Source: a virus
Taxonomy: Duplodnaviria; Heunggongvirae; Uroviricota; Caudoviricetes
IMG/VR virus record: IMGVR_UViG_2920292642_000002
Span: 19,431-83,430 of that record
DNA: 64,000 nt
Strand: one strand, 5' to 3'
Below, in pieces: positions 230-53,023 of this stretch (position 1 is its first letter; every line of letters starts with the position of its first letter). The notes beneath the pieces were generated by a model, which saw only the letters and a program-made list of their open reading frames with translations, was not told the origin of the DNA and ran no database searches. Position numbers and translations under genes: made by a program.

Positions 230-249
230 ATCTGCACTCAACCCTCCGA

Positions 250-429
250 TTACATCCACCAGCCCCGATCACCGGACATCGTGGCCGGCTGGTAGACGTG
301 GTATTTCACGACGTGATGGTCTCCGATCACGAGGCCGCACTTCGGCTGGAATGGAAGATCAACCGTCTTCCAGACCCCATCCGCGTTGGGCTCGTTGTTC
401 GGGACAAGCTTGACCTCGTACTTCGCCAT
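250..429 (-). CDS. hypothetical small protein (start MAKYEVKLVPNNEPNADG...)
   Basis: ORF 250..435; true ATG at 429 immediately after GGTGGGTTGAGTGCAG junction motif. Confidence 0.45.
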   Translation of the reverse strand: MAKYEVKLVPNNEPNADGVWKTVDLPFQPKCGLVIGDHHVVKYHVYQPATMSGDRGWWM

Positions 430-435
430 CTGCAC

Positions 436-645
436 TCAACCCACCAAAGCCATGCCGAGAAGTACGAGACCGACGACGATCCCGGAGCCGAACATGAAGT
501 AGAACATGACCCCACCGAAGATGAGCGCGCTGAGCCCATCCCCCTTCCTGTTCAGGAAGATCGTGAACCACGTCAGCAGCATCGACACGACGTACAGTCC
601 GACAAGGTAGAGTGCAGAGGCACCGACGATTTCCAGACCAGTCAT
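436..645 (-). CDS. small hydrophobic membrane protein (69 aa)
   Basis: ORF track; two predicted TM stretches; stop TGA embedded in junction motif feeding the next gene. Confidence 0.5.
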   Translation of the reverse strand: MTGLEIVGASALYLVGLYVVSMLLTWFTIFLNRKGDGLSALIFGGVMFYFMFGSGIVVGLVLLGMALVG

Positions 646-8146: not shown

Positions 8147-8803
8147 ATGAACATCGCAGTCCGCATCCCACCGCGCAAGAAGACCCGGCTCACCCCGGTC
8201 GTCACCAAGGTGCAGCCGTCGCATAGCGGCGCGCATGGCAAGGCCAAGATTCTCACCCCTGACCAGTTGCAGACGGCGCTCGGCAAGTGCGACGAGTCGA
8301 CGTTCCCGACGCGCGATCGCCTGATGCTGCTGCTGTCACACTATGCGGCGCTGCGTGCGCAGGAGATTGCCTATCTGGAGTATGAGGATATCTGCGACGT
8401 GGAAGGCCGGATCGTCGGCACGCTCCATGTATCGAAGAAGGCCGGCAAGTACGGCAAGGAGCGGGACATCCCGATGCATCCGGTCCTGCTCAAGGCGCTC
8501 AAGGCGTATTGCGCCGAGGCCGAGATCACCGATGGTCCGATCTTCTTCAGCCGCTTCGGTGAGCAGATGACGCCCAATGCGGTCCAGAAGCAAATCAAGG
8601 CGATCTACAAGGCCTGCAACTTCAAGGGCGCGTCGTCGCACAGCGGCCGGCGTGGTTTCATCACCCGGCTGGCAAGGTCGGCCGGTCAGGAGGAATGCTC
8701 GCTGGTCGACGTGCAGAAGTTGGCCGGTCACGCGTCTCTGACGACGACTGCGCTCTATATCGACGCCAGCCCGCAGGCCAAGCGTCTGGTGATGGCCCTG
8801 TGA
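8147..8803 (+). CDS. int: tyrosine recombinase / phage integrase family (218 aa, short form)
   Basis: catalytic region HSGRRGFITRL ... LAGHASLTTTALYID (R..H-R-Y signature); preceded by GTCAACACAACGGAG leader. Confidence 0.8.
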   Translation: MNIAVRIPPRKKTRLTPVVTKVQPSHSGAHGKAKILTPDQLQTALGKCDESTFPTRDRLMLLLSHYAALRAQEIAYLEYEDICDVEGRIVGTLHVSKKAGKYGKERDIPMHPVLLKALKAYCAEAEITDGPIFFSRFGEQMTPNAVQKQIKAIYKACNFKGASSHSGRRGFITRLARSAGQEECSLVDVQKLAGHASLTTTALYIDASPQAKRLVMAL

Positions 8804-13299: not shown

Positions 13300-13599
13300 C
13301 TAGCCGGTCAAAATTTTCTGCGCCTGTGTGGTCAGGCCTCCATGCTCCACGATCGCCGCGAAGATGAAGTTGATGAGGTCCTGCGGATCAGTTTTTGGCT
13401 TCCGCTTCCCGAACTCCACCTGCTCGTACTCCTTCCAACGCTCATTGAGGGAGTCGGCGCAGGCCTTCGCCTTCGCCTGCGAAGCGAAGACGATCTCGAC
13501 GCCGGGGAACTCCGCATCCTTCCAGAAGAGAATCGTGCGGCCCTTGCGATGGCAGAGCCGCCACGACTTGTCGTCATGCTGTCGCGCGCCGAAGGCCAT
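13300..13599 (-). CDS. hypothetical protein (99 aa)
   Basis: ORF track; start/stop overlap with upstream 256-aa gene suggests operon. Confidence 0.5.
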   Translation of the reverse strand: MAFGARQHDDKSWRLCHRKGRTILFWKDAEFPGVEIVFASQAKAKACADSLNERWKEYEQVEFGKRKPKTDPQDLINFIFAAIVEHGGLTTQAQKILTG

Positions 13600-14369
13600 C
13601 AGCCGTCCTCCAGTCCTGCCAAGGTCTCGCGAATCGTGGCGAGGCGCGTCGTGAAACCCAACGGCTCAAGAAACTCCTCGGATTTCCGCAGGTGGGTGAC
13701 GATAGCCTCCTTCGTGATGGCTCCGTCCTTGATCCGCTTGTGGAAGTATTCGGCCGGCGTCAGGTTCTCAAGCGCGTGAGGACCCTTGGCCTGAGCGACG
13801 ATCTGGAATCGCCTGAGCTTGATGTCCGCCTCCGAGGGAGGATGGTGATCGTCGATCCGATCGACCTCGACCATTTCCGGGAAAGCAATGACTTCATTTT
13901 CGTCCGACAGGAACAGCAGGACATTCGGCACCGGTAGGCGTCCGACCGTCACCGTGGGTTGGTGGGAGCCGGAGAGGTTGGCGAACTGCTCGGCGCGGGC
14001 ACGCTTGGTCGTCCACGAGAAGCCTGTGTGGTTGAGTGCAGAGCCTCCGCGATAGACCTTCAGAGGGGCATCGCGCCGCGCCGCCCGCTTGATGAAGTCA
14101 AGCTCCTCGGCACTCATCGCCATGAACCGGGCCGGCGACTGGATGCGCGCCAGAGTCAGCATGTTCCTGATCTCAACTCCATGCAGGAAGAGAGATTCCG
14201 ATTCACGCCAGACCCTGCGGAACAGGGACCAGAACGCCTCATCGGTAAGCTCCTCATGAATATCGTGCAGGGCGGAAACCCGCTCGAATTTGTCGTGCAT
14301 CGTGAAGATGGCACGGACGAGATCGTCCAACATGTTTTTTGCCTCCCCGTAGAGTTTTGATTGACACAA
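13599..14369 (-). CDS. hypothetical protein (256 aa)
   Basis: ORF track; non-shadow composition; weak R/S-T/E pattern (YRGGSA, FSWTT, EMVEVD) noted. Confidence 0.5.
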   Translation of the reverse strand: MCQSKLYGEAKNMLDDLVRAIFTMHDKFERVSALHDIHEELTDEAFWSLFRRVWRESESLFLHGVEIRNMLTLARIQSPARFMAMSAEELDFIKRAARRDAPLKVYRGGSALNHTGFSWTTKRARAEQFANLSGSHQPTVTVGRLPVPNVLLFLSDENEVIAFPEMVEVDRIDDHHPPSEADIKLRRFQIVAQAKGPHALENLTPAEYFHKRIKDGAITKEAIVTHLRKSEEFLEPLGFTTRLATIRETLAGLEDG

Positions 14370-14450: not shown

Positions 14451-15680
14451 ATGTCCGATTTCGAGTTTATCGCCCAAGAGGGCAAGATGAGGTCCCATAT
14501 CAAGGCGTGGAACAGGGGCGTCGAGTTCGACGAGGGCACCTATGCCCAACTTAGAAACATCGCCAGCCTGCCATTCATCCACAAGCATGTGGCCGCTATG
14601 CCAGATGCACATGTCGGCATCGGAGCGACGGTCGGTTCGGTCATCGCCACCAAGGGCGCAGTGATCCCGGCAGCGGTCGGAGTCGACCTCGGCTGCGGAA
14701 TGATGGCGTGGCGCATCTCCCTGAAGGAGAGCGATCTGCCCGACTCGCTTGGCCACATCCGCGCCGAGATGGAGCGCGCGACGCCGCACGGTCGCACCAA
14801 CAACGGTGAGAAGGGTGATCGCGGCGCGTGGGATAACGCTCCGACCTCTGCACTCAACCGCTGGAATGGTCTCTTCGATCGTTACGAACAGATCATCGCC
14901 AAGCACCCGAAGGCCAAGAGCTACAACGGCCTCAACCATCTCGGCACGCTCGGCACCGGCAACCACTTCATCGAGCTTTGCGGTGACGAGAATCAGGACC
15001 TCTGGGTCATGCTGCATTCCGGCTCGCGTGGCATCGGCAACAAGATCGGCTCCTACTTCATTGAGCAGGCGAAGAAGGAGATGGAGCGCTACCACGTCAC
15101 CGAGTACCTGCCGAATGCGGACTGCGCCTATCTGGTCGAACACACCGAGCTTTTCCAAGACTATGTCGAGGCGGTTAGCTGGGCTCAGGACTTCGCGTGG
15201 GAGAACCGCAAGCAGATGATGCACCAGACCATTATGGCCCTGCGGAAGGTGCTGCCGCCGTTCGCTGTAACCCAAGAGGCGATCAACTGCCATCACAACT
15301 ACATCTCTCGCGAGCATCATTTCGGCGAGAACGTGATCGTCACGCGCAAGGGCGCTGTCCGGGCGCGCGAAGGTGATCTCGGGATCATCCCCGGCTCCAT
15401 GGCAACCGGCTCCTACATCGTGCGCGGCAAGGGGAATCACGATTCCTTCTGCTCGTGCTCGCATGGTGCCGGCCGGCGCATGAGCCGTGGTCAGGCCTTC
15501 AAGGCGATCAGCCTCGAAGACCACATCAAGGCGACCGAGGGGGTTGAGTGCAGAAAGGATGCCGACGTGATCGACGAGAGCCCGGCAGCCTACAAGGACC
15601 TCGGCGCGGTGCTCGCCGCCCAGTCCGATCTCGTCGAGGTCGTGCACCGGCTGCGGACGCTCGTGAACGTCAAGGGTTGA
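14451..15680 (+). CDS. rtcB: RNA-splicing ligase RtcB (3'-phosphate/5'-OH RNA ligase)
   Basis: VGVDLGCGM, GNHFIELCGDEN, HSGSRGIGNKIG, SCSHGAGRRMSRGQA metal/GTP-binding motifs; start aligned to canonical RtcB N-terminus (MSDFEFIAQEGKMRSHIKAW). Confidence 0.9.
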   Translation: MSDFEFIAQEGKMRSHIKAWNRGVEFDEGTYAQLRNIASLPFIHKHVAAMPDAHVGIGATVGSVIATKGAVIPAAVGVDLGCGMMAWRISLKESDLPDSLGHIRAEMERATPHGRTNNGEKGDRGAWDNAPTSALNRWNGLFDRYEQIIAKHPKAKSYNGLNHLGTLGTGNHFIELCGDENQDLWVMLHSGSRGIGNKIGSYFIEQAKKEMERYHVTEYLPNADCAYLVEHTELFQDYVEAVSWAQDFAWENRKQMMHQTIMALRKVLPPFAVTQEAINCHHNYISREHHFGENVIVTRKGAVRAREGDLGIIPGSMATGSYIVRGKGNHDSFCSCSHGAGRRMSRGQAFKAISLEDHIKATEGVECRKDADVIDESPAAYKDLGAVLAAQSDLVEVVHRLRTLVNVKG

Positions 15681-15686
15681 GTGCAG

Positions 15687-15860
15687 ATGGGCGACCGGCT
15701 GCTCCTTGAGTGGAGCAAGAAAGGCATCTGGTACGGTTCGACAGACCCAAAGTACGTCGAACCGTACCGTGAATGGGCTCTGGAAGCCCTATCCAAAACA
15801 TCCGAGCGCTACGTCTATCTGCACGGCAGGGCTCGGATTTCATTCTACGAGGGATGTTGA
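15687..15860 (+). CDS. hypothetical small protein (57 aa, MGDRLLLEWSKKGIWYG...)
   Basis: manual translation; ATG immediately after GGTTGAGTGCAG junction containing rtcB stop. Confidence 0.4.
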   Translation: MGDRLLLEWSKKGIWYGSTDPKYVEPYREWALEALSKTSERYVYLHGRARISFYEGC

Positions 15861-16452: not shown

Positions 16453-16606
16453 CGCGGCCGACGACCTGTTCGACGCGGTGCTGCGTGAGCAGGAGATGCG
16501 ACATATCCTGCGCACCGCCTGCCCCTGTCACAATGAGAGCAACTGGTTCCGCAACGACGATGGCGTGATGGAATGCCGTCAATGCGGGGAAATGGTGGAT
16601 GAATAG
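16445..16606 (+). CDS. hypothetical small zinc-ribbon-like protein (CPCHNESNWF...CRQCGEM)
   Basis: ORF 16415..16606 from internal ATG 16445. Confidence 0.35.
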   Translation: MGSAADDLFDAVLREQEMRHILRTACPCHNESNWFRNDDGVMECRQCGEMVDE

Positions 16607-16607
16607 G

Positions 16608-17069
16608 ATGAGTGCAGAGCCTCAATACAAGAACATTCCAACGGTCTGCGTCACCGTCGTGCCGTTGACCACTGACAACAGGTTCAGCGGCATATTGCTG
16701 GTGAAGCGCGGTCTCAAGGACGATTGGCACGGTAAGTTGGCGCTACCGGGCGGCTATCAGGAGTTTGGCGAGACGTGGCAGGAGGCAGCCGCGCGCGAAG
16801 TTCGCGAGGAGACCGGGCACGAGGTCGAGATCGCGAGCAGGCCTTTTGCAGTCATGACGGTTCCGTCCGGCCACAACCTAATTTTCGGCGTGGCTTATCC
16901 GATCCCGTTCGACCAGCATGCCAACTACGAGCAGGTCGAGACGCTGGAGATCATGGCCGGCCGGGAGCCGTTCGAGCTTGCCTTTCCAGCGCACACCCAG
17001 ATTTACAATACGTGCCTGAGATTCCTCCGACAATCGCTGGACCTGAGCCACCTTTTCAGTAAAACTTGA
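16608..17069 (+). CDS. NUDIX hydrolase
   Basis: Nudix box GGYQEFGETWQEAAAREVREETG. Confidence 0.7.
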   Translation: MSAEPQYKNIPTVCVTVVPLTTDNRFSGILLVKRGLKDDWHGKLALPGGYQEFGETWQEAAAREVREETGHEVEIASRPFAVMTVPSGHNLIFGVAYPIPFDQHANYEQVETLEIMAGREPFELAFPAHTQIYNTCLRFLRQSLDLSHLFSKT

Positions 17070-24099: not shown

Positions 24100-24417
24100 T
24101 CACATTTTGTCGAAATCGACAGCGTCATTGACCGGGATTAGAAGCTCTTCGAGATCGAGCATCACGTCCTCGTACTTCTTGATGAAGGCCTTGGTCACCT
24201 GCACGTCCGGGAGCGCGACGCTGTTGGGCTGGGCGTAGAGGGTGCCGAGCCCATCGACGTAAGCATCCTTGTTGACCTGCCTGACGCGGAGGGTCGTGTC
24301 ACCCTTCGGGCGCTCATGCTTGAACCAGTTCCAGAATGCCTTGTCGACATCCTCGGCCTTGCCCCACGAATTTCCTCCGACCACGATAAAGTGGTTGAGC
24401 GGCTGTTGCTCACTCAT
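24100..24417 (-). CDS. hypothetical protein (105 aa)
   Basis: ORF track; followed by hairpin plus U-tract at 24059-24092. Confidence 0.5.
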   Translation of the reverse strand: MSEQQPLNHFIVVGGNSWGKAEDVDKAFWNWFKHERPKGDTTLRVRQVNKDAYVDGLGTLYAQPNSVALPDVQVTKAFIKKYEDVMLDLEELLIPVNDAVDFDKM

Positions 24418-25106
24418 GTTGACACTCCTATAAGGTTTTCAAAGAACATTCCGCCTCATTGGCAGCATCTATATCATAGCATATCTGGTTGATATTGCAA
24501 CAACTTTGTTCTTTGTAAGAATACTTGCGAGACAAGACTAGGTTGAGTGCAGACTAACTTTGAATACTACTGCAAACACGAAAAAGGCCCGGTGGGAGAC
24601 GGGCCTTGATGGTTAGGGGTTGAGTGCAGAGACTAACATCGCAGGAATGATGACGATCTGGAGGAGAGCGGCTGGTCTTGATCCGCAGACCTCTCCCGAG
24701 GTCCCAACCGTTTTCGAGACGGTGCCGGCGCGCCTGTCCGGTTCACTCTCCATAACTGGTCCGAGGGGAGAGAATTTGCACTCCCACAGTCTAAGACGGC
24801 CGCTTTACAGGCGGTTAGGCTCACTCGTGCCCAGCCCTCGGATGCGCGATCGCGTATAAAGCGAGTTTATCCGGAATCGCGTATAAATGGCGGAAGGCGG
24901 TGGCCCTGATCCACTAACCCGTGCGGGTCTCATCCGTTTAGCAAACGGAGCCGGCCCGAGCCGGTTCACCTTCCAGAAATGAAATGGAGGAGACGGAGAG
25001 CAGGCCAGTATCGCTCGCGCTCGATTACGGGCGCGCCGGCCTGTCTCCTAGCCCTCTTACTCGCGCCATCCTATCGAGCCAACAGGACCGCTTCGGCAGG
25101 GCATCT

Positions 25107-25192
25107 TGGCGGAGAGCGGAGAACTCGAATCCCACACCTTGCGGTGCGCTTCGCCTTCCAAGCGGGCCGGGAACCTATCCCGTTCACTCTCC
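25107..25192 (-). tRNA. tRNA-Ser(GGA), class II
   Basis: manual fold: acceptor GGAGAGU/GCUCUCC, long variable arm, loop UUGGAAG, T-loop TTCGAGT, CCA encoded. Confidence 0.5.
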
Positions 25193-25196
25193 ATAC

Positions 25197-27983: not shown

Positions 27984-28431
27984 GAGATCGCTTTTGGAGG
28001 GAGGCCAGCAGGCCATCGTTAGATGGAGTGTCAACACAACGGAGTCGCAAGACTTGCCGAAGCTGCCGACCTCCCGCCAAAGGCGATCTAGGTGCCGAAA
28101 GCGTGAGACTACCGCTTTCGATGACGACCTTCCCGCATTATCCGACGCCTTGCGAGCGTGGTTCTCGGGATGTCCACGCCGAGCATATTGCTATGTCTCG
28201 ACGTATTCGTCAATGCCGCCTTTTTTAGCGCGTGGCGTTTCGCGCGTCGCTGCGTGCTATTCGGCGTCTCGTCGACCGTGAGCCTTGCGGGCTCTTCGCG
28301 GCTGCTACACCGCTACGATCTCTTCCTCACCGACACCCTCCAGCTTGCGACCTTCAGGTGACCCAGTTCCCCGCAGGGCTGGGCATTAGGCATCTTTCAC
28401 ACGCAACCGGGACAGGCTTTGCGTTTTGTTA

Positions 28432-28506
28432 TCGTGAGGCCGGATTTGAACCGGCGACCGATGGCTTAGAGGGCCATTGCGCTACCAACTGCGCTACTCG
28501 CAACCC
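28432..28506 (-). tRNA. tRNA-like (anticodon loop CCTCTAA, TCT with C33; no encoded CCA) - possible pseudo-tRNA
   Basis: T-arm GCCGG-TTCAAAT-CCGGC, D-arm GCGC-AGTTGGTA-GCGC, acceptor with mismatch. Confidence 0.35.
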
Positions 28507-29061
28507 ACCGAGACGTGCTGCCCCAGTTGCTCCAAGCCCTTTTGGGACCCAGAATACAACACGCCTGCTGCTACCTTTCGCGCTGCTAACGCTACTCGAT
28601 CATGCTTCGAGATCACGGGTCATTTCAGCCCGAGACCTTGCCACATTGCCAGACGCCCTCGGCCGCTAAGCCTCGAACCTTCTGACTACCCTTCATCATC
28701 GGCCATCGATCAGTTTGCGTGCCGGGCGCGCTTTGCGAGCGCTTGAGGGCCACCATCGGCTACCCTCTTATCCAACCTTGCGGGTCGGACCCTGCCTGAT
28801 CTTCGGGCCTAGCCCACCTTCCGGTAAGCCGGGTGTCCCCGTGACTGGGCTTGCATGGCTGGACGCGGTTACCCGCGTGGAGGTTTATGGGAAACCCTCC
28901 TTTGGGCCGGTTGCCCGGCTTACCCTGACGACGCCATGCCGCCAAACTCTGCTCCGGTTCTCGTCGCCGATCGCCGTCGCCTTGTTGTCCTCTAACTACT
29001 TCACGACTGCGCCGCCCGTCAAGCATTAATTTGCAATCGTGTTAAGATTTTTTCGACATAC

Positions 29062-31545: not shown

Positions 31546-31562
31546 TGAGGGTTGAGTGCAGA

Positions 31563-32414
31563 TCAGTTCGGAGAGAGATTGACGAACGGCAGGGCTCCGC
31601 CCGGCACCATGGTGGCCGGAAGCTGGCCGTTCCACGTCTCCACCTTCACGAGATCGATGACAGTCGGATTGTCGCGCAGCGCCTTGCCGCGTGCCGCGAT
31701 CGCCGAGGCGTCGGCGTCGCCCTTCAGTCGGATCGCATCGGCATCGGCCTGCGCCTTCTTACGAATCGCGTCGGCATCAGCCTGCGCCTTGGCGACCGTA
31801 ATCTCGTTGCGTTCGGCCTCCTGCTTCTTCTCCTGCTTGAGGCGTTCGACCTCATTCTCGGCGAGCATGCGCTTCTCGATCGACTTCTCGTAAGCGTCGG
31901 AGAAGTTGACATCCTCGATCTGAACCGACTCGATCAGGATGGGGCCGGCGATGTTCTCGGTCATGGCCTTGGCGACTTCGACGCCGAGACGTTCGCGCTC
32001 GGTGATGGCGGTCGCGGCCGTGAACGTGCCCATGACCTCCTTCAGTTCCTTCTTCACACGTCGGTCGACGAGTCGCGTCAGGACGCCCTCCTCGCCGCCA
32101 TATTCGGAATAAATCTGCGCGATCTTGTCAGCCGCGAGCTTGTAGGTGACCGACACCGTCATCGTCGCCGCCTGTCGGTCGGCCGAATAGAAGGGCTCGT
32201 CCTGATAAAGCCGCGAGTTGGTCCGGATGGAAATCGACTTGACGCTGTCGACCAGCGGGGTGATGAAGTTCATACCCGGCTCGGCGATCGACGAGTACGC
32301 ACCGTTGCGCAGGACCACGCCGCGCTCGCCCTCATCGATCGTCTCGATACTGAGGAGCGCGCCGAACATAACGACCACTGCGATCGTCCCAATTGCTGCA
32401 AAAATTCCCTTCAT
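31563..32414 (-). CDS. SPFH/band-7 (prohibitin/HflK-like) membrane protein with C-terminal coiled-coil
   Basis: N-terminal TM, SPFH core (GVVLRNGAYSSIAEPGMNFITPLVDSV...), repeated KKAQADADAIR coiled coil. Confidence 0.8.
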   Translation of the reverse strand: MKGIFAAIGTIAVVVMFGALLSIETIDEGERGVVLRNGAYSSIAEPGMNFITPLVDSVKSISIRTNSRLYQDEPFYSADRQAATMTVSVTYKLAADKIAQIYSEYGGEEGVLTRLVDRRVKKELKEVMGTFTAATAITERERLGVEVAKAMTENIAGPILIESVQIEDVNFSDAYEKSIEKRMLAENEVERLKQEKKQEAERNEITVAKAQADADAIRKKAQADADAIRLKGDADASAIAARGKALRDNPTVIDLVKVETWNGQLPATMVPGGALPFVNLSPN

Positions 32415-35804: not shown

Positions 35805-36035
35805 TTGATGGCATCGGTCAACGTTTCAGAAGCTGAGTTCATGGTCGTCGCACACGCTGCCTACGAGGCTCATGCGCATGGTGACACGGATTCGGCCAAG
35901 GTGTTGGATAAGCTCGCCCGCAAGATCAATGCGGCGCTGTCCAATGAGACCACGTCAAGGGCCACTCCTTTCGCCCGCGTGACAAAACCGGCGTCGTGGA
36001 AGGACATGCCGTCGACATTGGATAGGGAGGGTTGA
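35805..36035 (+). CDS. hypothetical protein (76 aa); stop embedded in GGTTGAGTGCAG junction
   Basis: ORF track. Confidence 0.45.
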   Translation: MMASVNVSEAEFMVVAHAAYEAHAHGDTDSAKVLDKLARKINAALSNETTSRATPFARVTKPASWKDMPSTLDREG

Positions 36036-36041
36036 GTGCAG

Positions 36042-36344
36042 ATGAAGTCGATCCTGAGCCCACGTGAGACCGAATTTCTCGTCGATCTCTTCCGCAAGTC
36101 GAAGGGCGAGCCGTGGGAGCCGAACAATCCCAAGCACCCGTTCTTCGACAAGGCGATCAAGGCCGGTTACCTGCGGCGTGCAGACGGACGCTGCGGCTTC
36201 GAGCGGTTCAAGGACTCCTTCGTCGCGTGGACAGAGGCCGGGCACAATGCTCTAACCCTGTCCGAGGCGGTCATGGAGCCTGTCCGTCGCCAAGAGATCA
36301 TTAGACACCGAGCAATGGGGATCGTGAATGCAGCTACCAATTGA
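36042..36344 (+). CDS. hypothetical protein (100 aa)
   Basis: ATG directly after junction motif. Confidence 0.45.
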   Translation: MKSILSPRETEFLVDLFRKSKGEPWEPNNPKHPFFDKAIKAGYLRRADGRCGFERFKDSFVAWTEAGHNALTLSEAVMEPVRRQEIIRHRAMGIVNAATN

Positions 36345-39347: not shown

Positions 39348-39425
39348 CCATCGTCAAGATTTGCTTGACAAACCTCTTGCCGAGGAGGCGGGAGGCGTAT
39401 AGGTTGGCGGAAAGGTTGAGTACAG

Positions 39426-39779
39426 ATGCAAACTCCTAGCCTCATGGATATCATCAGGGCCAACAAGAATGAGCCCTCGGGTCCGGAAAAGCCACTTAGT
39501 TTCGGAACGCATCTTCTGGGTTCGAGGGGTTGGGCCATTCTCGAAATCACAAGAATGGAGCCGGATTGGGCGATGACCAAGGTGGTCGACGCCTCGCGCG
39601 CCGACTGTATTGGCAACGTCATGCACATATCGGGGAACACCGGCTTCATCAAGCGCGCCCGCGCCAGCAGACGCGAGGATTTGAGGACCTTCAAGGTCGG
39701 CACCCGGATCACGATCGCGATGACCTATCGCGATAAATTTGGTCATCGTCTGGCCGAGATCGAGAAGGTTGAGGGATGA
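39426..39779 (+). CDS. hypothetical protein (117 aa)
   Basis: ATG after junction motif variant GGTTGAGTACAG. Confidence 0.45.
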   Translation: MQTPSLMDIIRANKNEPSGPEKPLSFGTHLLGSRGWAILEITRMEPDWAMTKVVDASRADCIGNVMHISGNTGFIKRARASRREDLRTFKVGTRITIAMTYRDKFGHRLAEIEKVEG

Positions 39780-39970
39780 GCATCCAAGATGACATCTTTG
39801 ACGTTGAGCATGCCCTGCGTCGCAATCCGGCGATGAAGAAGGCATTCGAGCGCATCGTCACACACCTTGCCGCCGTCGAGCGGAGAGAAGAGCAGGCACG
39901 GACACATCTGCTCCGTCTTGCTGATGGTGCGAAGGCCTTCAAGGAACTGGTCGATCTAGGTCGGGGTTGA
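39776..39970 (+). CDS. hypothetical protein (64 aa)
   Basis: ORF track; stop in junction motif. Confidence 0.4.
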   Translation: MSIQDDIFDVEHALRRNPAMKKAFERIVTHLAAVERREEQARTHLLRLADGAKAFKELVDLGRG

Positions 39971-39977
39971 GTGCAGA

Positions 39978-40295: not shown

Positions 40296-40699
40296 TTGTC
40301 GAGTGGGACAAGGTCGACGCCGACTACCTGCGCAAGGTTCTGGCCGAGAACGATCCGGCCGCGTTCCGCAAGCTCTATCTGTGCGAGCCGGTGCCAGAGC
40401 CTTTTCCTGAGGTCTACTGGTTCTTCGCGCCGAGCTTCCGCGTCGCCGAGGCGGTCCTGTGGTCCGACTATGACATCCACCCGAAGCTACCGATCATCAA
40501 GATCGTGACCAAGTCTATAGACAGTCTGCGTAGCCTCAAGGCCGGATCGACCGTGACGATGTTTGATGACCCTGAATTTTCAGAGCGCATCCGCATGCGA
40601 GACCGTGAAGAGTTCTGGATGCTGGGCAGATATCGCGGCTGGCGTAACTGGGACAAGCGCGACAGGGATTACCTTCGAGCTTTGACAAGACAGGGTTGA
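40292..40699 (+). CDS. hypothetical protein (135 aa)
   Basis: ORF track. Confidence 0.45.
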   Translation: MIVEWDKVDADYLRKVLAENDPAAFRKLYLCEPVPEPFPEVYWFFAPSFRVAEAVLWSDYDIHPKLPIIKIVTKSIDSLRSLKAGSTVTMFDDPEFSERIRMRDREEFWMLGRYRGWRNWDKRDRDYLRALTRQG

Positions 40700-40705
40700 G
40701 TGCAG

Positions 40706-40972
40706 ATGACGGATCAGGCTAAAAGCACGCGCCTATTTACGTTTCCAGACAAACTTCTCGTGGCGACGAGCCTTATGGAGGCACGTCGAATCAAGCGCGT
40801 GCTTGGCCTCGGCGACGATTGGCGACCGGTTGGGTTGTACCAGAACATGGCTGGATTCCGTGCTTCCAAGATCGTGGTGATCGGCGTCAAGTTCTATAGA
40901 GGACTGGAGGTCGACTTGGTCGAGCAGCTTCGGTCGCGCCTGCGGCCGGGCGGTGATTTGGAGACCATTTGA
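40706..40972 (+). CDS. hypothetical protein (88 aa)
   Basis: ATG after junction motif. Confidence 0.45.
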   Translation: MTDQAKSTRLFTFPDKLLVATSLMEARRIKRVLGLGDDWRPVGLYQNMAGFRASKIVVIGVKFYRGLEVDLVEQLRSRLRPGGDLETI

Positions 40973-41442: not shown

Positions 41443-41673
41443 ATGTCTAAGCTGACACAGCGCCTACTCAACAGAGCCGCAGACCTCGCCGAGCTTCAGT
41501 CGAAGGTCCAGTCCGATCTTACCGAGGCCTTCCGAGAGCGCTACGGCACCACCTACTCCGATGTCAACGCCGACGAAATCATAGATGTGCTTGACTATCA
41601 TGGCGGACATATCACACTCAGTGATGTCGACGAAATCATGACAAAGGCCGGGTATCCGCCGCGAAAGGGTTGA
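41443..41673 (+). CDS. hypothetical protein (76 aa)
   Basis: ORF track. Confidence 0.45.
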   Translation: MSKLTQRLLNRAADLAELQSKVQSDLTEAFRERYGTTYSDVNADEIIDVLDYHGGHITLSDVDEIMTKAGYPPRKG

Positions 41674-41679
41674 GTGCAG

Positions 41680-41958
41680 ATGGGTAGCTACACACTCCTC
41701 GAAAAGAACGGCCTCATGGTCGACCTCGACGAGGCGAAGAAGGACTTCACCTTGGCGATCGTCGCCGAGGAGCCAGCCATGCTCAAGGTGAGCACGCACT
41801 ATCACCACCACGTCGAGATCATCGACCCGATGCTCTCGCCGGAGGACCTGATTCAGATCGGCATGCGGCTGATCAAGGTCGCGGCCGGACGGATGTCGCC
41901 GGAGGCCATCAAGGAGGCGGCTGGTGAGTTCGAGAAGATACTAGCCGTCAAGGAGTGA
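41680..41958 (+). CDS. hypothetical protein (92 aa)
   Basis: ATG after junction motif. Confidence 0.45.
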   Translation: MGSYTLLEKNGLMVDLDEAKKDFTLAIVAEEPAMLKVSTHYHHHVEIIDPMLSPEDLIQIGMRLIKVAAGRMSPEAIKEAAGEFEKILAVKE

Positions 41959-41967: not shown

Positions 41968-42381
41968 ATGATCGCTCACTACATCCTGCGCGATCGCGAA
42001 CCGGTCCCGGCCGAGTTGATGGAGTGGGCGCGGTGGTTCGAGACGGCCGATCGGCACGTCGCGCTCGCCGACACCCAGCTTCACACGGTCTCGACGGTCT
42101 TCCTCGGCATCGATCACAATTTCAGCCGCCACGGCCGGCCGCTGCTCTTCGAGACGATGGTGTTCGAGCGCTGGAAGGGGGAAGACCGACAGGATGAGCC
42201 CGAGCGCGACGGTTTACCAGACCGGGTCATCGACTGGATCGAGACTCTTGGCATCTGCCGGCGCTACCCGACATGGGGCGACGCCGAGGAAGGTCACCGC
42301 AAGGTCGTGGCCGAGGTCCTGCGCACTGAGATGGACGCCAATCACCAACTGTTCGAAGCGATCCGCAAGCCCGCTCGCTGA
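41968..42381 (+). CDS. hypothetical protein (137 aa)
   Basis: ORF track. Confidence 0.45.
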   Translation: MIAHYILRDREPVPAELMEWARWFETADRHVALADTQLHTVSTVFLGIDHNFSRHGRPLLFETMVFERWKGEDRQDEPERDGLPDRVIDWIETLGICRRYPTWGDAEEGHRKVVAEVLRTEMDANHQLFEAIRKPAR

Positions 42382-43848
42382 TCACCGGACCTGATATTTC
42401 CGGTTTGCCTCATCCATCTCACGCTGGCGCTTCTGCCGGCTGCGCTCCCACATCACGTCCTCGACATCCTCAGGGCAGAATAGGTCGAGCGCTTCCTGCG
42501 TCAGCCGGCGATCGTAGGTCGTGACCTTCTCGATCCACGTGCCCTTGCCGTCGCCATAGCCTTTCGTCTCCCTGTTCAGACGCATGCGCGCGTAATGCGC
42601 GTCCGGGATCGTGCCGTGGAATTTCTGCCAATCCGGATGGAAGTCCCTGATGTCCTCCATCATCCCGTTGAAGGTGAAAAAGGCATCCGGGCTGACCTGC
42701 TGGCGGAACGCCTGCCGGCGCATGAACTCGTAGAACCAGTCGACCAGATAGTTCTCCTTGACATCGTAGTCGTGGAAAGCCTGCCGGCGCGGCCGGTAGA
42801 GTCCGTAACGCACGCGCTCAATTCGCGCTTCTCGATCGGTGTCGTCCGCACCCTTGCTCTTGGTTCGCCGCCAGCGTTCGAGATGGGTATCGATCGTGTG
42901 TGGGTTGGAGGGCTCACCGAAGACCTCGGGATCGGCCGTCATCCTGACCACGGTCTCTCGATCGAAGACGGGGAAATGCTCCAGCTTGAGGAGGATGTCC
43001 TTCCACGTCCACATCCGCTCATTGCGCTTGGCCGAAAGCTTCTCGATGTTGAAGGCGGCGCGGCGCTCGCGGAACACGTCATAGACATCCGACCGGTTGA
43101 TCCTGTCCAGAATCTCCGGCTGGATCATGAACTGGCCGGTCGATTTCGGCATGCGGCCGTTCGGAAGGGTCCGATGCTTGGCGAACATCTCCGCCTCGAT
43201 CGGCGCAATCATGTGACGGGCCGACTCGATCGTATGTGGAGTGAACAGATACTTCTTGGCAACGCGTCGGAAGAATGGCTCGCTCGGGTGATAGAAGGTC
43301 CGGCTCGGGTCCACGTCCATGGCGTAACGACCCATGGGACCGACACCCAACGTCTCGATCATCTCGTCGGACCGCTCCAGCTTCTTGCGATATCCCTCGG
43401 GATCGGCGTCGAGATGGAACACGTCGGTGAAGCAGGAGGAGAAGAGCTTGCGGGTCATCCACACCGCGCCCGGCCGGAAGTCGCGCTCCTGACTGTCGCG
43501 GGTGATTGTGAACGGGTTGCCGTCACTGTCGAGCACAGGCTTGCCGTCGATCAGGTATGGCGTCTCGATCGGCGGGTGGTAGATGCCCTTGTGATCGGTG
43601 TAGCCATAATACTCGCGCCGGGTCGCGGCCGGGAAGGGTGTCGCCCGGAGATAGGCGTCGCAGACCGCGCGCATCCATATCTCCATGGCGGTGAAGACGA
43701 ACTCCTTGCCGTCCTCCTCGACCTCGAACAGATTCTGAAACCTCGGCGAGACGCGGCGCTTGCGGGCATTGCTACGAATGTTTCGGTTCTGCGACCGTCG
43801 CTCCTTCGAACGCCCGCTTCCCATCTTCAGCTTCATTCTGCACTCACT
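42382..43848 (-). CDS. hypothetical protein (~488 aa) with highly basic N-terminus
   Basis: ORF 42382..43854; ATG at 43848 follows duplicated junction motif; no family recognised. Confidence 0.5.
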   Translation of the reverse strand, partial: SECRMKLKMGSGRSKERRSQNRNIRSNARKRRVSPRFQNLFEVEEDGKEFVFTAMEIWMRAVCDAYLRATPFPAATRREYYGYTDHKGIYHPPIETPYLIDGKPVLDSDGNPFTITRDSQERDFRPGAVWMTRKLFSSCFTDVFHLDADPEGYRKKLERSDEMIETLGVGPMGRYAMDVDPSRTFYHPSEPFFRRVAKKYLFTPHTIESARHMIAPIEAEMFAKHRTLPNGRMPKSTGQFMIQPEILDRINRSDVYDVFRERRAAFNIEKLSAKRNERMWTWKDILLKLEHFPVFDRETVVRMTADPEVFGEPSNPHTIDTHLERWRRTKSKGADDTDREARIERVRYGLYRPRRQAFHDYDVKENYLVDWFYEFMRRQAFRQQVSPDAFFTFNGMMEDIRDFHPDWQKFHGTIPDAHYARMRLNRETKGYGDGKGTWIEKVTTYDRRLTQEALDLFCPEDVEDVMWERSRQKRQREMDEANRKYQVR

Positions 43849-44593
43849 CTGCACTCAACCTGTTTGGGCCGGGTTTCCCTGTGTGCGCAAGCGCAGTCGC
43901 GCGGTCTCAATAGTGGACGATCTGGGTGCACCGGTCCCAACCCCTTCCTCTCCCTTTAAGCCAAGAGAAGGCGTAGCATTTATGGTTAGCGCCTATGCTT
44001 AATCCTGTCAATCGTATCTTTACACGTTCGGACATCCGTTCTGGACGCGTCGGCTCCTCCTCTCCCCTCGACGAGGCGGTAGCCGGTCGGTCAGACAGGG
44101 CGGTAGTTAGGGATTAGAGTTATTGGCTAATCTAAAATGCTACTGCTTCTCAAGGCTTTTAGGTAGGTTAAGGGGTAAGAGAAATTTAGAGGACCAGAAA
44201 ACTAGAAGCTGAGAAAACCAGAAATCCATCAGTCGATCAGGTTGAGTTCAGAGCGTCTGCACTCAACCCGAGATCAACGGACGGGCACGCCCCTTCTCAC
44301 CGGACAGCCGCCGCGCCGGCCGCACTCGATCCAGCGCAGCACGATCCACTTGATCCAATTCTAAAAGGTTGAGTGCAGACCGGCACCATCCACGCCCAAT
44401 CCCATCCTCTCCAAATCCCTTCTCCCAGCAGGATGAGTGCAGACCGGCACCATCCAAAACTCAGACTTACAAACACCGGGTTGAGTGCAGACGCGCTTCA
44501 CAGCCCGATCGCTTTGTCAAGGTATTATAGTGAGCCACTGTCCAGAATTTCTTGACATTTAGCCTCCAGAAGTCGAGACTCCGCACATTCTCC

Positions 44594-46091: not shown

Positions 46092-46566
46092 CCCGAAATG
46101 GGAGGTCTTCGCCACCGGTCTGGCGGACGGCCTCACCGTTCTCGATGCCTATGAGCAGGCCGGCTACCCGCGCTCGGCCTCCTCGGCGTCGCAGTTGAAG
46201 AACCGGCCTGAGCTTCAGTCGCGCGTGCAGGAACTGATCTACGAGAAGCAGAGCGCCGCCCGGCGTGAGTCCGAGAATGATCCCGACATCAACCCGCACG
46301 AACTCAACCGTGCATGGTTGATCACCACGCTGATGAAGAATGTCGAGATCGCCCAGAAGGCGCAGCAGATCGCACCGGCCAACAAGGCGGTCGAGATGCT
46401 GGCCGAGATCATCGGCTACTCGCTCAAGAACCGTGGCGGCAAGAACGCCAACGACGACGACCCCAACAAGGACGGCGAAGCGCCCGGCTTTGATTTCGAC
46501 AAGGCCAATGACGCCATCGGCCGGCTCATGGAAGTGCTGCCGGACGCACCGACCGAGGGTAGCTGA
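46075..46566 (+). CDS. terS: terminase small subunit
   Basis: N-terminal HTH-like region PKWEVFATGLADGLTVLDAYEQAGYP typical of phage small terminase family; immediately upstream of terL. Confidence 0.6.
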   Translation: MPVLSNPKWEVFATGLADGLTVLDAYEQAGYPRSASSASQLKNRPELQSRVQELIYEKQSAARRESENDPDINPHELNRAWLITTLMKNVEIAQKAQQIAPANKAVEMLAEIIGYSLKNRGGKNANDDDPNKDGEAPGFDFDKANDAIGRLMEVLPDAPTEGS

Positions 46567-49379: not shown

Positions 49380-49688
49380 GCGGCGTTAACCTTACCTGCA
49401 CAAGGTTAACGCCCGCGCCCGGCTCTGCACTCAACCCAGTTTCCCTAATGATTTCAAGGCTTTACGCCGGACTCCTACCAACTCCTAGAATGTACGAATT
49501 AGGAGTTGGGGAAAATTTGGATGATCATGGCCTCCAGATTTTGGATGAGCATGGTTTTGCATGAGGTCTGGCATGAGCATGGTCGAATTTTTGGATGGGG
49601 GAGAATTGGAACACGCGCCTGCGCGAGCGCGCGCCCGGATCGCTCAGATTTTCGGAAAACTTGAGTAAAATTTGAAACAAGCCCGCCG

Positions 49689-49845
49689 TTAACCATGCTC
49701 AGGTAAGGTTAACGCGCCTTGTTAACCATTCTCAGGTAAGGTTAACGGCCGGCGTTAACCATGCGGGAGTAAGGTTAACGCCGACCGCCTCCACCCAGCC
49801 CGCCTCGTTAACCCTACCCGAGTAAGGTTAACAACGCCAGCCCCG
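49689..49845. promoter_or_regulatory. cluster of four tandem GTTAACC-N10-GGTTAAC palindromes plus a half-site (operator-like array)
   Basis: perfect 7-bp inverted repeats with 10-bp spacer repeated at 49692, 49727, 49762, 49812; same element precedes every downstream cassette. Confidence 0.55.
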
Positions 49846-49927
49846 GCGTTAACCTTGCTGGCGATCGCCACTTGCATTTCGTGCGCAATGCATTATTCTG
49901 TATCAGTCAACGCAACAGGAAAGAAAA

Positions 49928-50149
49928 ATGAGCAAGGAACCTCCCTTCCTCGACTGGGACGCGATCGAGACCGAGATCGCCGACACCAATCGCAAGGCGT
50001 GGGACGCCGAAAACACCCCGGAGAAGATCGCGGCGCGCAAGGCCAAGTCTGAAGCCGAGTTCGAGCGCGGAGTCCGTAACGGCTGGTGGGACAAGGACGG
50101 CAATTCCCTCCAGCCCGAGGAGCCGGACGAGGAGGAGGACGAGGAATAA
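49928..50149 (+). CDS. cassette small protein (73 aa, acidic C-terminus)
   Basis: preceded by TTGCAT...TATTCTGTATCAGTCAACGCAACAGGAAAG leader. Confidence 0.5.
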   Translation: MSKEPPFLDWDAIETEIADTNRKAWDAENTPEKIAARKAKSEAEFERGVRNGWWDKDGNSLQPEEPDEEEDEE

Positions 50150-50286
50150 GACGCCGGCCGTTAACCATTCCGGGGTAAGGTTAACGCGTGCCGGCCGCGC
50201 CCGGCGTTAACCTTGCTGTCCAGATTCGCTTTACAAATCCGGAGGCGTCGCCTAAGGTGCTCTGGTCAACGCAACCGGAGGACCCC

Positions 50287-50613
50287 ATGAGCAAGCGATC
50301 CGACAAGGCAGCGGCCAAGCTGTTCCACCAACTGTTTCCCGGCGTCGGCTGGGATTACACCGACCACAAGGCCAAGCCGCTGCTGCGCGCCGCGTTCGCC
50401 CTTTACGAATCGGAGTGGAAGACCACCCAGCCTCAGGCGTTCAGGATTGAGCGCTGGGAGTGGCCGGCTAAGGCGTTCAAGAGCGACGATCCATATGTTT
50501 TCGACGCGCATGAGCCGTGGACGGTGCTTTTCCGCGAGGTCAAGATGCTGCACGACGCTCACCGCGAGACAAGCGGATACCCGCGCACGCTGGCGGACCG
50601 GATGCCCCGGTGA
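50287..50613 (+). CDS. cassette small protein (108 aa)
   Basis: promoter TTTACA-N17-TAAGGT and leader GTCAACGCAACCGGAGG upstream. Confidence 0.5.
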   Translation: MSKRSDKAAAKLFHQLFPGVGWDYTDHKAKPLLRAAFALYESEWKTTQPQAFRIERWEWPAKAFKSDDPYVFDAHEPWTVLFREVKMLHDAHRETSGYPRTLADRMPR

Positions 50614-50726
50614 TGACCTACGAAATCACCACGGCGCTTACCTTCCTGCTGATCCTCAAAGTGCCGCTGCTGCTCTGGATCGTCCAGTTCACGATGGACG
50701 TGGACTCCGGTCGCATCAAGCTCTGA
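50613..50726 (+). CDS. hydrophobic micro-protein (37 aa, MTYEITTALTFLLILKVPLLLWIVQF...)
   Basis: TGATG coupled to previous ORF; terminator follows. Confidence 0.4.
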   Translation: MTYEITTALTFLLILKVPLLLWIVQFTMDVDSGRIKL

Positions 50727-50907
50727 AACGTCGAGGCCGGGCCAAGCGCCCGGCCTTTTTCGTGCCGGCCGGCGTTAACCATACCCGAGTAAGGTTAACG
50801 GCGAGCGCGCCGGCTGCTCCGAGGCATTAACCTTGCTGTCCAGAATCGCTTTACAAAAGCGGAGGTATGGCCTAAGGTCCTCTGGTCAACGCAACGGAGA
50901 GACCGAC

Positions 50908-51168
50908 ATGTTCAAAATGGAGTTCAGGACCGACAACGCCGCTTTCGTCGACGATCAGGCCGGCGAGATCGACCGGATTTTCCGCGAGGTCGCCGAGCGC
51001 GTCGCGGCGGCGGAAAAGGGCGGCACGATCCGCGATAGCAACGGCAACCGAGTCGGCCGCTGGGAACTGGAGGCCGAAGACGAAGAGGAGGAAAACCCCT
51101 TCGATCCCGAGAGCCCGGAGGGTCGCGCGTGGGAGCGCGGCGACCGTCACCTTGTGGGAGGCAACTGA
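50908..51168 (+). CDS. cassette small protein (86 aa)
   Basis: leader GTCAACGCAACGGAGAG. Confidence 0.5.
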   Translation: MFKMEFRTDNAAFVDDQAGEIDRIFREVAERVAAAEKGGTIRDSNGNRVGRWELEAEDEEEENPFDPESPEGRAWERGDRHLVGGN

Positions 51169-51404
51169 TGACCAAGCGAGAGAAGCGCCGTTTCATCCGC
51201 GAACTGATCAGCGCTGTCCAGAAGTCAATTCTGGATCGTGTCCCAGACATGCCGGAGGAGTGGGACGGTCACGAACTGCGCGCCTATATCGCCGAGAAGT
51301 TCGGCGAAACCGTTGTGACGGTCGGCAGGACCGGGCACTATGGCAAGCCCTACGCCAAGCGGACCCGTGACTATCGCAACACCGTTATCGAGCGCAACCT
51401 ATGA
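51168..51404 (+). CDS. cassette small protein (78 aa)
   Basis: coupled to previous. Confidence 0.45.
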   Translation: MTKREKRRFIRELISAVQKSILDRVPDMPEEWDGHELRAYIAEKFGETVVTVGRTGHYGKPYAKRTRDYRNTVIERNL

Positions 51405-51532
51405 CCCTATTCGTGGAAGGCTACGAGGCCGCGAGACGTGGCGTCAAATGGTGGCGCAATCCCTATCCCTCAGGCTCTGAGGACGCCTACACATGGGACA
51501 AGGGACACACGAGGTTCCGCACCATCGGCTGA
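51401..51532 (+). CDS. small protein (43 aa)
   Basis: ATGA coupling; manual translation. Confidence 0.35.
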   Translation: MTLFVEGYEAARRGVKWWRNPYPSGSEDAYTWDKGHTRFRTIG

Positions 51533-52077: not shown

Positions 52078-52149
52078 GCCCGGTCTTTTCCTTGCCCGGC
52101 CGGCGTTAACCCTACCCGAGTAAGGTAAACGCGGCCGGCTGCGGCGTTA

Positions 52150-52477: not shown

Positions 52478-52480
52478 ACT

Positions 52481-52887: not shown

Positions 52888-53023
52888 GCGGCCTTTTCCT
52901 TGCCCGGCCGGCGTTAACCTAACCGAGATAAGGTTAACGCGGCGGCGCGGCCGTTAACCTTGCTGTCCAGATTTGCTTTACAGTCTCCCCGGCTCTGCTA
53001 TGGTGTTCTGGTCAACGCAACGG

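Follow-up and report, generated by a model that had tools for sequence, protein, structure and literature searches.

The window analysed here is a 64,000-nucleotide stretch of DNA from a virus of the class Caudoviricetes (IMG/VR record IMGVR_UViG_2920292642_000002, positions 19,431 to 83,430), and the subject of this work is the 13-nucleotide word GGTTGAGTGCAGA, which recurs along it. The window codes for a DNA polymerase, an SNF2 helicase, a primase-helicase-like protein of 1249 amino acids (aa), RtcB and NAD-salvage genes, and also carries a 26-gene tRNA array, the terminase genes TerS and TerL and a block of small early genes. Gene calls were made with a simple codon-usage caller, and the starts were adjusted by hand.

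A megablast comparison of the 14-34 kb part gave a sole match, Mesorhizobium phage Cp1R7A-A1 (MT188704.1, 131 kb), with about 79% identity over 29% of the query. According to tblastn of the gene calls, the window is syntenic in reverse orientation with Cp1R7A-A1 from about 71 kb down to 1; their core proteins share 50-87% identity, and many of the small genes have no counterpart. Identity is 100% between the 484-aa protein encoded at 42382-43836(-) and KEU06_09305, which Pseudaminobacter sp. 19-2017 encodes on a contig of 391,276 bp; the window is therefore probably a prophage in a bacterial assembly. It is a relative of Cp1R7A-A1, probably integrated in Pseudaminobacter sp. 19-2017. Cp1R7A-A1 encodes a 415-aa integrase and a P22 C2-like helix-turn-helix (HTH) protein, and the lineage is probably temperate.

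Alignment of all window copies with part of those in Cp1R7A-A1 shows a conserved unit of 13 nucleotides that is asymmetric, non-palindromic and sharply bounded: in the 40-nt flanks on either side, conservation reaches a maximum of 0.5-0.6 bit at positions -1 and -4 and stays below 0.3 bit elsewhere. The last A is invariant in every copy, whether or not TG follows it, and substitutions are tolerated mainly at positions 3, 4, 8 and 9. The occurrence of the word is strongly non-random. The window has 18 exact and five one-mismatch copies (23 in total), for a chance expectation of about 0.05-0.06. With up to two mismatches allowed, GGTTGAGTGCAGATG has 20 matches versus 0.06 expected, and no shuffled sequence reached 20; TGAGTGCAG has 22 matches versus 0.41 expected. 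The initial annotation had reported a near-identical 15-mer at no fewer than 12 gene junctions. The repeats do lie at the junctions that it listed, far above chance; the repeated unit is the 13-mer and not a 15-mer, and the copies flush with a start codon number nine. The enrichment at gene boundaries holds: 18 of the 23 copies are intergenic or at gene boundaries, while 27% of the window lies outside the called coding sequences (binomial p = 5e-7).

In the nine start-flush copies the ATG stands 0-1 nt past the 13-mer. Seven of them read CAG-ATG, with starts at 231(-), 429(-), 15687, 36042, 39426 (one mismatch in the word), 40706 and 41680, and two read CAGA-ATG (39978 and 43836(-)). It had been proposed that the upstream gene always ends at the TGA within the word; this is the case in six of the nine, the others being 231-243(-), 39414 and 43848(-), the last of which has no upstream gene. 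Likewise, the word fixes the C-terminal residue of the upstream protein, as Gly, at these six junctions only and not elsewhere. A Lys-Gly-stop ending is the usual C-terminus of RtcB.

The exact copy at 231-243(-) leads into ATG 231-229, and the upstream TAA (250-252) lies 6 nt before the word. At 429-441(-), also exact, the ATG occupies 429-427, the upstream gene (436-645) ends in the TGA of the word, and the junction is syntenic with Cp1R7A-A1 71154(+). The exact copy at the RtcB junction (15675-15687(+)) contains the RtcB TGA at 15678-15680 and leads into ATG 15687 of a 57-aa open reading frame (ORF); it is identical in Cp1R7A-A1 (56150(-)). Four further exact copies on the plus strand follow an ORF that ends in their TGA: 36030-36042 (ATG 36042), 39965-39977 (ATG 39978, after 1 nt), 40694-40706 (ATG 40706) and 41668-41680 (ATG 41680). 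In Cp1R7A-A1 the copy 22510(-) directly precedes the homologue of 41968-42381, and the window thus has one more gene after the 41668 word. The one-mismatch copy GGTTGAGTACAGA at 39414-39426(+) leads into ATG 39426, and the nearest upstream stop is 79 nt away. The last of the nine (43837-43860(-)) consists of an exact copy at 43848-43860 and an overlapping partial copy, GAGTGAGTGCAGA, at 43837-49, after which comes ATG 43836, where the conserved 484-aa gene begins; that start had first been placed at 43848.

For at least five start-flush genes there is no Shine-Dalgarno sequence and no upstream stop near enough for translational coupling, and the word itself contains no Shine-Dalgarno core, only GAG at -8 to -6. 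Among the motif-led downstream proteins tested no paralogy was detected, and these proteins are mutually unrelated. Counting both phages, an ATG follows the word within 0-3 nt in about 20 copies (nine in the window and about 10 of the 36 in Cp1R7A-A1). The codon is always ATG, which is partly forced because the final A is invariant. Start-associated copies make up about 40-45% of the total, and about 60% are found elsewhere.

Several of these other copies lie within genes. The one-mismatch copy GGTAGAGTGCAGA at 606-618(+) is antisense within the gene 436-645(-) and has a counterpart in Cp1R7A-A1 (70986(-)). An exact copy at 14030-14042(+) is antisense in a 244-aa gene (13599-14333(-)) and stands 409 nt upstream of where RtcB starts; on the gene strand, by frame arithmetic, it reads TCT GCA CTC AAC C (Ser-Ala-Leu-Asn). 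RtcB itself contains two exact copies besides that at its junction: one antisense at 14847-14859(-), 514 nt upstream of the divergent 244-aa gene and kept in Cp1R7A-A1 (56978(+)), and one sense in its 3' part at 15542-15554(+), whose counterpart in Cp1R7A-A1, 56283(-), is likewise 133 nt away from the junction copy. All four (14030+, 14847-, 15542+ and 606+) had been overlooked. Another one-mismatch copy, GGATGAGTGCAGA, lies at 16606-16618(+), at the 5' end of a NUDIX ORF (16599-17069).

The copies listed as having no following ORF exist, some of them a few bases away from the positions first given. Four intergenic copies, all exact, oppose the local genes. That at 24541-24553(+) is located between a minus-strand terminator and the sigma70-like promoter of the gene 24100-24417(-); it precedes the -35 of that promoter by about 40 nt and is exact at the same place in Cp1R7A-A1 (42366(-)). 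That at 24618-24630(+) opposes the minus-strand tRNA array and stands directly before the array's terminator hairpin; the Cp1R7A-A1 counterpart is degenerate, with two mismatches. The copy at 31550-31562(+) lies between the stop of the HflK/C-like gene 31563-32369(-) and the terminator hairpin, with no Cp1R7A-A1 counterpart, and that at 49424-49436(-) is just past the TerL stop (49379) and points back into TerL. Manual mapping onto the deposited annotation of Cp1R7A-A1, against which all its copies were classified by hand, revealed an orientation bias of the intergenic copies, 18 being sense and four antisense to transcription. Intragenic copies (window and Cp1R7A-A1, homologous sites taken once, manual count) comprise five sense and 11 antisense, a ratio not different from the 2:3 allowed by the TGA frame. 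Overall, about one-third of the copies oppose the local gene.

The 770-bp divergent region from the 484-aa gene to the TerS/TerL operon has seven copies, in both orientations. Two of them form an inverted pair, face to face, GGTTGAGTTCAGA-gcg-TCTGCACTCAACC, at 44240-44268 (copies 44240/44256, 3 nt apart), which folds at -10.2 kcal/mol (z = -3.7), and three stand in tandem at 44367-44491(+), of which 44367 and 44479 are exact and 44431 has one mismatch. The latter is the variant GGATGAGTGCAG, for which the initial annotation noted an ATG in the stop position; the copy is present, and its internal ATG is at 44433 rather than 44438. The tandem copies lie upstream of a TGTCCAGAAT-CTTGACA promoter-like region and the TerS/TerL operon, the proximal one about 60 nt upstream of the -35 CTTGACA, and no copy overlaps a recognizable -35 or -10 element. 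No Shine-Dalgarno sequence precedes the first TerS-operon gene, whose predicted leader is very short. An equivalent cluster of 5-7 copies in both orientations is present in five of the five genomes that cover the region (the window, Cp1R7A-A1, L123, L124 and L125). In Cp1R7A-A1 the inverted pair is back-to-back, the opposite geometry to that of the window. The 484-aa protein adjoining the cluster has a very basic N-terminus; searches of Pfam, PHROG and PDB gave no match for it, and just three homologues besides itself were found.

Cp1R7A-A1 contains 26 exact copies, for a chance expectation of about 0.05, and 10 one-mismatch copies (36), all within 0.2-96 kb. Its lysis/structural module at 97-131 kb has none (95.8-100 and 100-131 kb were checked), and none is found in the early region of the window at 49.9-64 kb, where 22 early promoter cassettes lack the word; the distribution follows the modules of the genome. 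Two antisense copies of Cp1R7A-A1, at 81524 and 81599 of the record (L003 31524 and 31599, minus strand), lie 75 nt apart in the thymidylate synthase gene and share a longer repeat, GGTTGAG(T/C)GCAGAcgggcttc.

The wider census that the initial annotation had called for retrieved the identical word in six more related contigs: L027 (a TerL fragment), L121, L122, L123 (a Mesorhizobium assembly), L124 and L125. The DNA polymerase of L121 is 68% and that of L122 50% identical, the range across the relatives being 50-84%. The internal GTG of the word is the called start of a gene in L123 (13823(-)) and a probable start in L122 (18175(-)). A Ros/MucR-family regulator is encoded beside the motif-rich accessory region in L002 (21527-21976), L123 (11879-12328), L124 (2499-2981) and L125 (6782-6958) and has no homologue in the window. 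Beyond these relatives, a scan of IMG/VR for the exact 15-mer returned 54 contigs with one copy each, which is the chance level, and only L027 among them is a relative; IMG/VR has no further contig with more than one copy. The paired-motif pattern was found nowhere in the genome collection, and metagenomes gave only two unrelated satellite-like contigs. Searches for related loci by protein, the queries being the 484-aa protein, the primase and DNA polymerase, were mostly empty, L121 and L122 being the exceptions. Sixty viral contigs that carry RtcB (42-79% identical) all lack the word, which is therefore not tied to RtcB. From its occurrence in these sequences the word is lineage-specific and unchanged while proteins diverged to 50% identity. 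No relevant paper came up in a literature search for the sequence string; two papers mention Cp1R7A-A1, and neither describes the motif.

The word is under purifying selection. In the spacer past TerL, the 13 bases are the only block common to the window, Cp1R7A-A1 and L027 (alignment A1), and L123 has a copy as well. Where the tRNA array ends, the copy after the terminator is exact in the window and Cp1R7A-A1 (alignment A2), in contrast to the degenerate copy before it. Within the DNA polymerase gene, both Cp1R7A-A1 and L121 have an antisense copy, TCT GCA CTC AAC C (Ser-Ala-Leu-Asn), and differ at nearby synonymous sites, whereas the window encodes the same four residues with four synonymous differences and no motif. 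To judge from these alignments, the intragenic antisense copies (DNA polymerase, RtcB) are kept by synonymous codon choice.

The word also marks mosaic breakpoints between the two phages. At the RtcB junction, an ungapped comparison of the window with Cp1R7A-A1 gives 89% identity for the 90 nt that precede the motif, 13/13 matches within it and 24% identity beyond; for the junction past the _149 homologue (copy 429, Cp1R7A-A1 71154(+)) the values are 56%, 13/13 and 29%. Different, unrelated small genes follow in each phage at both junctions, the second again with the motif. Of the nine start-flush genes of the window, seven have no homologue in Cp1R7A-A1.

The regulatory signals of the lineage are otherwise of a different kind. 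In the early region (49850-63900(+)) the genes are preceded one by one by 22 cassettes, each composed of a GTTAACC half-site, TGTCCAGA, a -35 (CTTTACA or GCTTGCA), a 17-nt spacer and a -10 (CTAWKGT); further sites are at 8125, 28030, 36836 and 37860. An almost invariant leader, GTCAACGCAACGGAG, stands 5-8 nt before the ATG, and host-type promoters with the same leader are present within the middle region (8125, 36810, 37834). Between TerL and the first early gene (49386-49850) there are six GTTAACC-N10-12-GGTTAAC palindromes. CtrA-dependent promoters have been reported for Cp1R7A-A1 (PMC9437464); the early cassettes of the window agree with them, and the palindromes contain the CtrA-type TTAACC half-sites described in the same work. 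The element TGTCCAGA(AT) has 24 sites in the window, for example 7834, 19659(-), 31502(-), 36810, 37834 and 44539. It occurs beside or within sigma70-like promoters genome-wide and is overrepresented in the late module of Cp1R7A-A1. Its core, GTCCAGA, is one base off the GTGCAGA of the 13-mer.

Scans for sigma70 promoters and terminators found no consensus signal attached to the junction copies, which sit within operons with no terminator ahead of them; none is at the head of a main replication operon. Among about 45 proteins compared with Pfam or PHROGs, many of them matchless, there was no candidate reader of the word, polymerase or sigma factor, and the annotation of Cp1R7A-A1 lists no RNA polymerase or sigma factor. 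The 1249-aa ORF resembles a primase-helicase rather than an RNA polymerase. The only regulators found are the Ros/MucR protein and the C2-like HTH protein of Cp1R7A-A1. An RNAduplex scan of the GOLLD RNA, transfer-messenger RNA (tmRNA) and tRNAs detected no partial complement beyond the motif copies. Other ideas were dropped on reasoning alone: stop read-through or removal of an 11-nt GT...AG segment fusing the ORFs (removal would shift the frame), a sigma54 or extracytoplasmic function promoter (its GG-GC spacing would not fit, and a -35 is missing), and a Chi-like, methylase or T5-type nick site (the association with starts is left unexplained). Pairing with 16S rRNA helix 43 was set aside in the same way, the similarity being only 7 nt and at chance level.

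Other features of the window were recorded during the analysis. A GOLLD RNA at 28100-28566(-) scores 205 bits (gathering score 150), lies within the tRNA array and includes a tRNA-Arg gene. A permuted, alphaproteobacterial two-piece tmRNA is carried by the phage at 12958-13269(-) (101.6 bits). Two or three extra tRNA-like genes, whose variable arms are long and whose CCA ends are encoded, were seen by eye at about 24660-24860 and at 25108-25195(-); ARAGORN and Rfam did not call them, and the annotation of Cp1R7A-A1 has a tRNA-Tyr in the equivalent place. An intein interrupts TerL (937 aa, 46566-49379(+)), where Hint, Intein_splicing and LAGLIDADG match at about residues 135-483, a feature also seen in L123. 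A perfect 38-bp tandem repeat (6.2 copies, 100% identity) occupies 63530-63766.

We tentatively favour the explanation that GGTTGAGTGCAGA is the DNA site of one sequence-specific factor, similar to the stoperators of Cluster A phages. A DNA-bound factor covers all classes of copies, and the DNA-level recognition site that the initial annotation had offered as an alternative fits the whole set better than a signal in RNA; the probably temperate lifestyle also speaks for it. The reader would most likely be a phage-encoded DNA-binding protein, acting as a monomer on the asymmetric 13-bp site in double-stranded DNA. The control-region cluster between the 484-aa gene and the TerS/TerL operon could serve as operators, and the single sites in accessory-gene gaps, at the ends of transcription units and in some genes might gate passing RNA polymerase, as the repressors of Cluster A mycobacteriophages do at their stoperators. 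With genes as tightly packed as here, junctions would favour the sense orientation, in which the upstream TGA comes from the word and the start either touches it or lies in it (GTG at positions 7-9, ATG from 13). Given the identity of all copies, the sites may double as joints for swapping accessory genes between related phages. Three elements of this reading are inferred: a protein as the reader, binding to DNA and not to RNA, and an effect by repression or as a roadblock. Judged by the promoter signals, the control-region copies, with promoter-like regions diverging on either side, are most likely untranscribed and could then only be read as DNA.

Several points weigh against this explanation. 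A DNA roadblock does not require the fixed 0-3 nt spacing to the ATG, for which coding economy has to be invoked, and the start-flush genes with neither a Shine-Dalgarno sequence nor a near stop imply that RNA of the motif must at least permit initiation. The protein scans gave no binding-protein candidate, and the C2-like repressor of Cp1R7A-A1 would be expected to bind a palindrome. Both the 22 early cassettes and the structural module are free of copies, and a lysogeny repressor would need to silence both; the stoperators of L5 are found in both genome arms. Finally, the geometry of the inverted pair is opposite in the window and Cp1R7A-A1.

Next in order of probability we place an RNA start signal and then a promoter, both of them doubtful and the promoter slightly the more so; a recombination joint alone, replication sites and, last, plain coupling or chance are less probable still. 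As an RNA signal of the type of the start-associated sequences (SAS) of mycobacteriophages, the 13 nt at -12 to +1 would be a class-specific initiation region through which accessory genes are switched together. It could be read by a phage or host factor or by a complementary RNA, since transcripts containing the reverse complement could pair with it, candidate partners being the mRNAs of DNA polymerase and RtcB, the tRNA-array trailer and the 3' untranslated regions of TerL and the HflK-like gene before their terminators. The ATG positions in the nine window copies and about 10 Cp1R7A-A1 copies, the use of the internal GTG as a start in L123 and probably L122, the at least five genes with neither Shine-Dalgarno sequence nor near stop and the SAS parallels (PMC3203893) all argue for such a role, as does a second start-proximal word in the same genome, the GTCAACGCAACGGAG-N5-8-ATG of the 22 early leaders. 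Reverse-complement copies stand directly upstream of the terminator hairpins at 31550 and 24618, a perfect 13-bp duplex would have about -24 kcal/mol, and the RtcB mRNA carries one reverse-complement and two sense copies, all three kept in Cp1R7A-A1. Nevertheless, the control-region copies are probably in no mRNA, the tRNA-array copy before the terminator is the one that degenerates in Cp1R7A-A1 while the one beyond it stays exact, no non-coding RNA of the window has an extra complementary seed, and a Shine-Dalgarno core is missing. The share of copies away from starts, the cluster in both orientations, the kept antisense copies and the missing core together imply that signalling translational coupling, as first suggested, or an RNA-level start cannot be the sole role of the motif. 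Were the word instead a self-contained phage promoter with +1 at its final A, the start-flush genes would have leaderless mRNAs, the terminase operon leadered ones, and antisense RNAs would be made to DNA polymerase, ThyA, RtcB, TerL and the tRNA array. This would account for the 0-3 nt spacing and exclusive ATG, for the tandem copies ahead of TerS/TerL and the co-oriented intergenic copies, and for a class-like distribution in which early cassettes and late module are copy-free; gene-by-gene promoters already rule in the early region, and the short leader of the first TerS-operon gene fits as well. On the other hand, neither the Cp1R7A-A1 annotation nor the proteins scanned supply a polymerase or sigma factor, and the word is G+C-rich up to +1, with no -10-like TAnnnT, -35, AT-rich melting region or flank conservation, and is therefore unlike sigma-dependent promoters. 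Its copies are within operons with no terminator ahead, none of them heads a main replication operon, and the pair 44240/44256, face to face at 3 nt, cannot be two working promoters.

The breakpoints described above, where homology ends at the 3' edge of the motif (89% to 24% and 56% to 29%), the unrelated genes beyond them and the seven of nine start-flush genes without a Cp1R7A-A1 homologue could also mean that the 13-mers are linkers for accessory-gene exchange, through microhomology or a site-specific enzyme, with no regulatory role and with the start association inherited with each cassette. We regard this as improbable: it leaves unexplained the conserved control-region cluster, the kept antisense copy past TerL and the intragenic copies maintained by codon choice, 13 bp is short for homologous exchange, and there is no second conserved site 3' of the swapped genes. 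A more elaborate and rather less probable version takes the 13-mer as the crossover site of an attC-less phage gene-cassette system, the word doubling as the expression signal of the cassette. Small accessory genes with motif-flush starts would then be inserted, deleted or exchanged by site-specific recombination, perhaps by the 218-aa tyrosine recombinase (8147-8803), which is conserved in the lineage, and a complete site would be represented by the control-region inverted pair, which can be read as 11-7-11. We give about as little weight to replication sites, in which the cluster beside the AT-rich 43.96-44.23 kb would provide origin iterons for the 1249-aa primase-helicase and the dispersed copies strand-specific loading or priming sites. 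The cluster has both orientations, the primase-helicase-like protein is conserved in all relatives, and from 14 to 44.5 kb 15 of the 16 copies are on the plus strand whatever the gene strand, the 49424 copy being on the minus strand, with the same convergence on the terminase region in Cp1R7A-A1. This polarity fails in the replication module of Cp1R7A-A1 (57-96 kb, eight plus and six minus copies), within the polar region just three or four independent copies run against the local genes, a DNA-binding domain in the primase-helicase is only putative, and the start-flush placement is left unexplained. Simple translational coupling through a favoured stop/start junction, suggested by the six TGA-N6-ATG junctions in the same reading frame, needs no invariant 13-nt word and explains neither the ORF-less copies nor the antisense ones nor those in conserved non-coding spacers; the census contradicts it and its counts exclude chance, which makes this pair very improbable.

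Among known systems, stoperators come closest in the way the element works and SAS in its appearance, and it belongs to neither. The stoperators bound by L5 gp71 and by the TipsytheTRex repressor are asymmetric 13-mers present in more than 20 copies in promoter regions and short intergenic spaces, their orientation is tied to transcription and the reader is a two-domain monomer (PMC9283540). The present word shares with those of Cluster A its length, asymmetry and number of copies per genome, the location in a promoter/control region and in short intergenic spaces, the frequent contact with stop or start codons and a probably temperate lineage. A tie of orientation to transcription is seen for most intergenic copies of Cp1R7A-A1, and four intergenic copies of the window run against it. 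The word differs in its unrelated sequence and alphaproteobacterial host, in having no copies in the structural module or early cassettes, in the roughly one-third of copies that oppose the local gene, in the tight ATG spacing and in that the scanned proteins gave no candidate repressor; a homologue of the Cluster A repressor, for which no search was made, was not found.

The SAS of Cluster K mycobacteriophages is GGGATAGGAGCCC (PMC3203893, PMC12699233). The resemblance to it pointed out in the initial annotation extends to the asymmetric 13-nt form, the restriction to non-structural genes, the position at ATG starts of unrelated families, the upstream stop sometimes enclosed and the conservation across diverged relatives; the function of both is unproven. 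It ends at the position and orientation of the copies, since SAS are nearly all at starts and in one orientation, and at the AGGAG Shine-Dalgarno core that SAS carry 3-7 nt from the start, which the 13-mer (0-3 nt) lacks. The 40-nt flanks of the 13-mer contain no partner like the extended SAS (17-bp inverted repeats at about half of SAS), and the early leader GTCAACGCAACGGAG-N5-8-ATG of the same genome is a closer SAS analogue than the 13-mer. Were one factor to read the word, we would know of no earlier stoperator- or SAS-like system outside actinobacteriophages.

The promoter early stem-loops of T4-type phages, which are mobile regulatory cassettes, are units of about 50 nt with an early promoter and a stem-loop, and the modular theory of phage evolution postulates 'linker' sequences. 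Like these, the 13-mer is a repeated regulatory word next to small variable ORFs and marks gene-content differences between relatives; unlike the stem-loop units, it has 13 nt, no promoter hexamers and no hairpin. Class-specific minimal promoters (T4 late TATAAATA; those of single-subunit RNA polymerases, conserved through +1) are also short self-contained words, co-oriented with downstream genes and missing from other temporal classes. The 13-mer differs from them in its G+C-rich composition, its absence from operon heads, its face-to-face pair and the lack of a cognate polymerase or sigma factor among the scanned proteins. In integron arrays, a GTTRRRY core is part of an attC imperfect palindrome of 57-141 bp, recombined by the IntI integrase. 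The GTTGAGT of the 13-mer fits this core, without a flanking palindrome or conserved flank, and the only recombinase of the window is the 218-aa Phage_integrase-domain protein.

If one factor reads the word, it would offer a handle on the control of accessory genes and the terminase operon in an alphaproteobacterial phage lineage of 131 kb. This lineage, to which Cp1R7A-A1 and the probable Pseudaminobacter prophage belong, already has CtrA-dependent early promoters, at least 26 tRNAs, a tmRNA and a GOLLD RNA. SAS are of unproven function, and the start-flush placement, the missing Shine-Dalgarno sequence and the DNA-level copies are separable here by simple mutants. The mosaic breakpoints exactly at the motif make it a clean case in which to test short regulatory words as joints of gene exchange.

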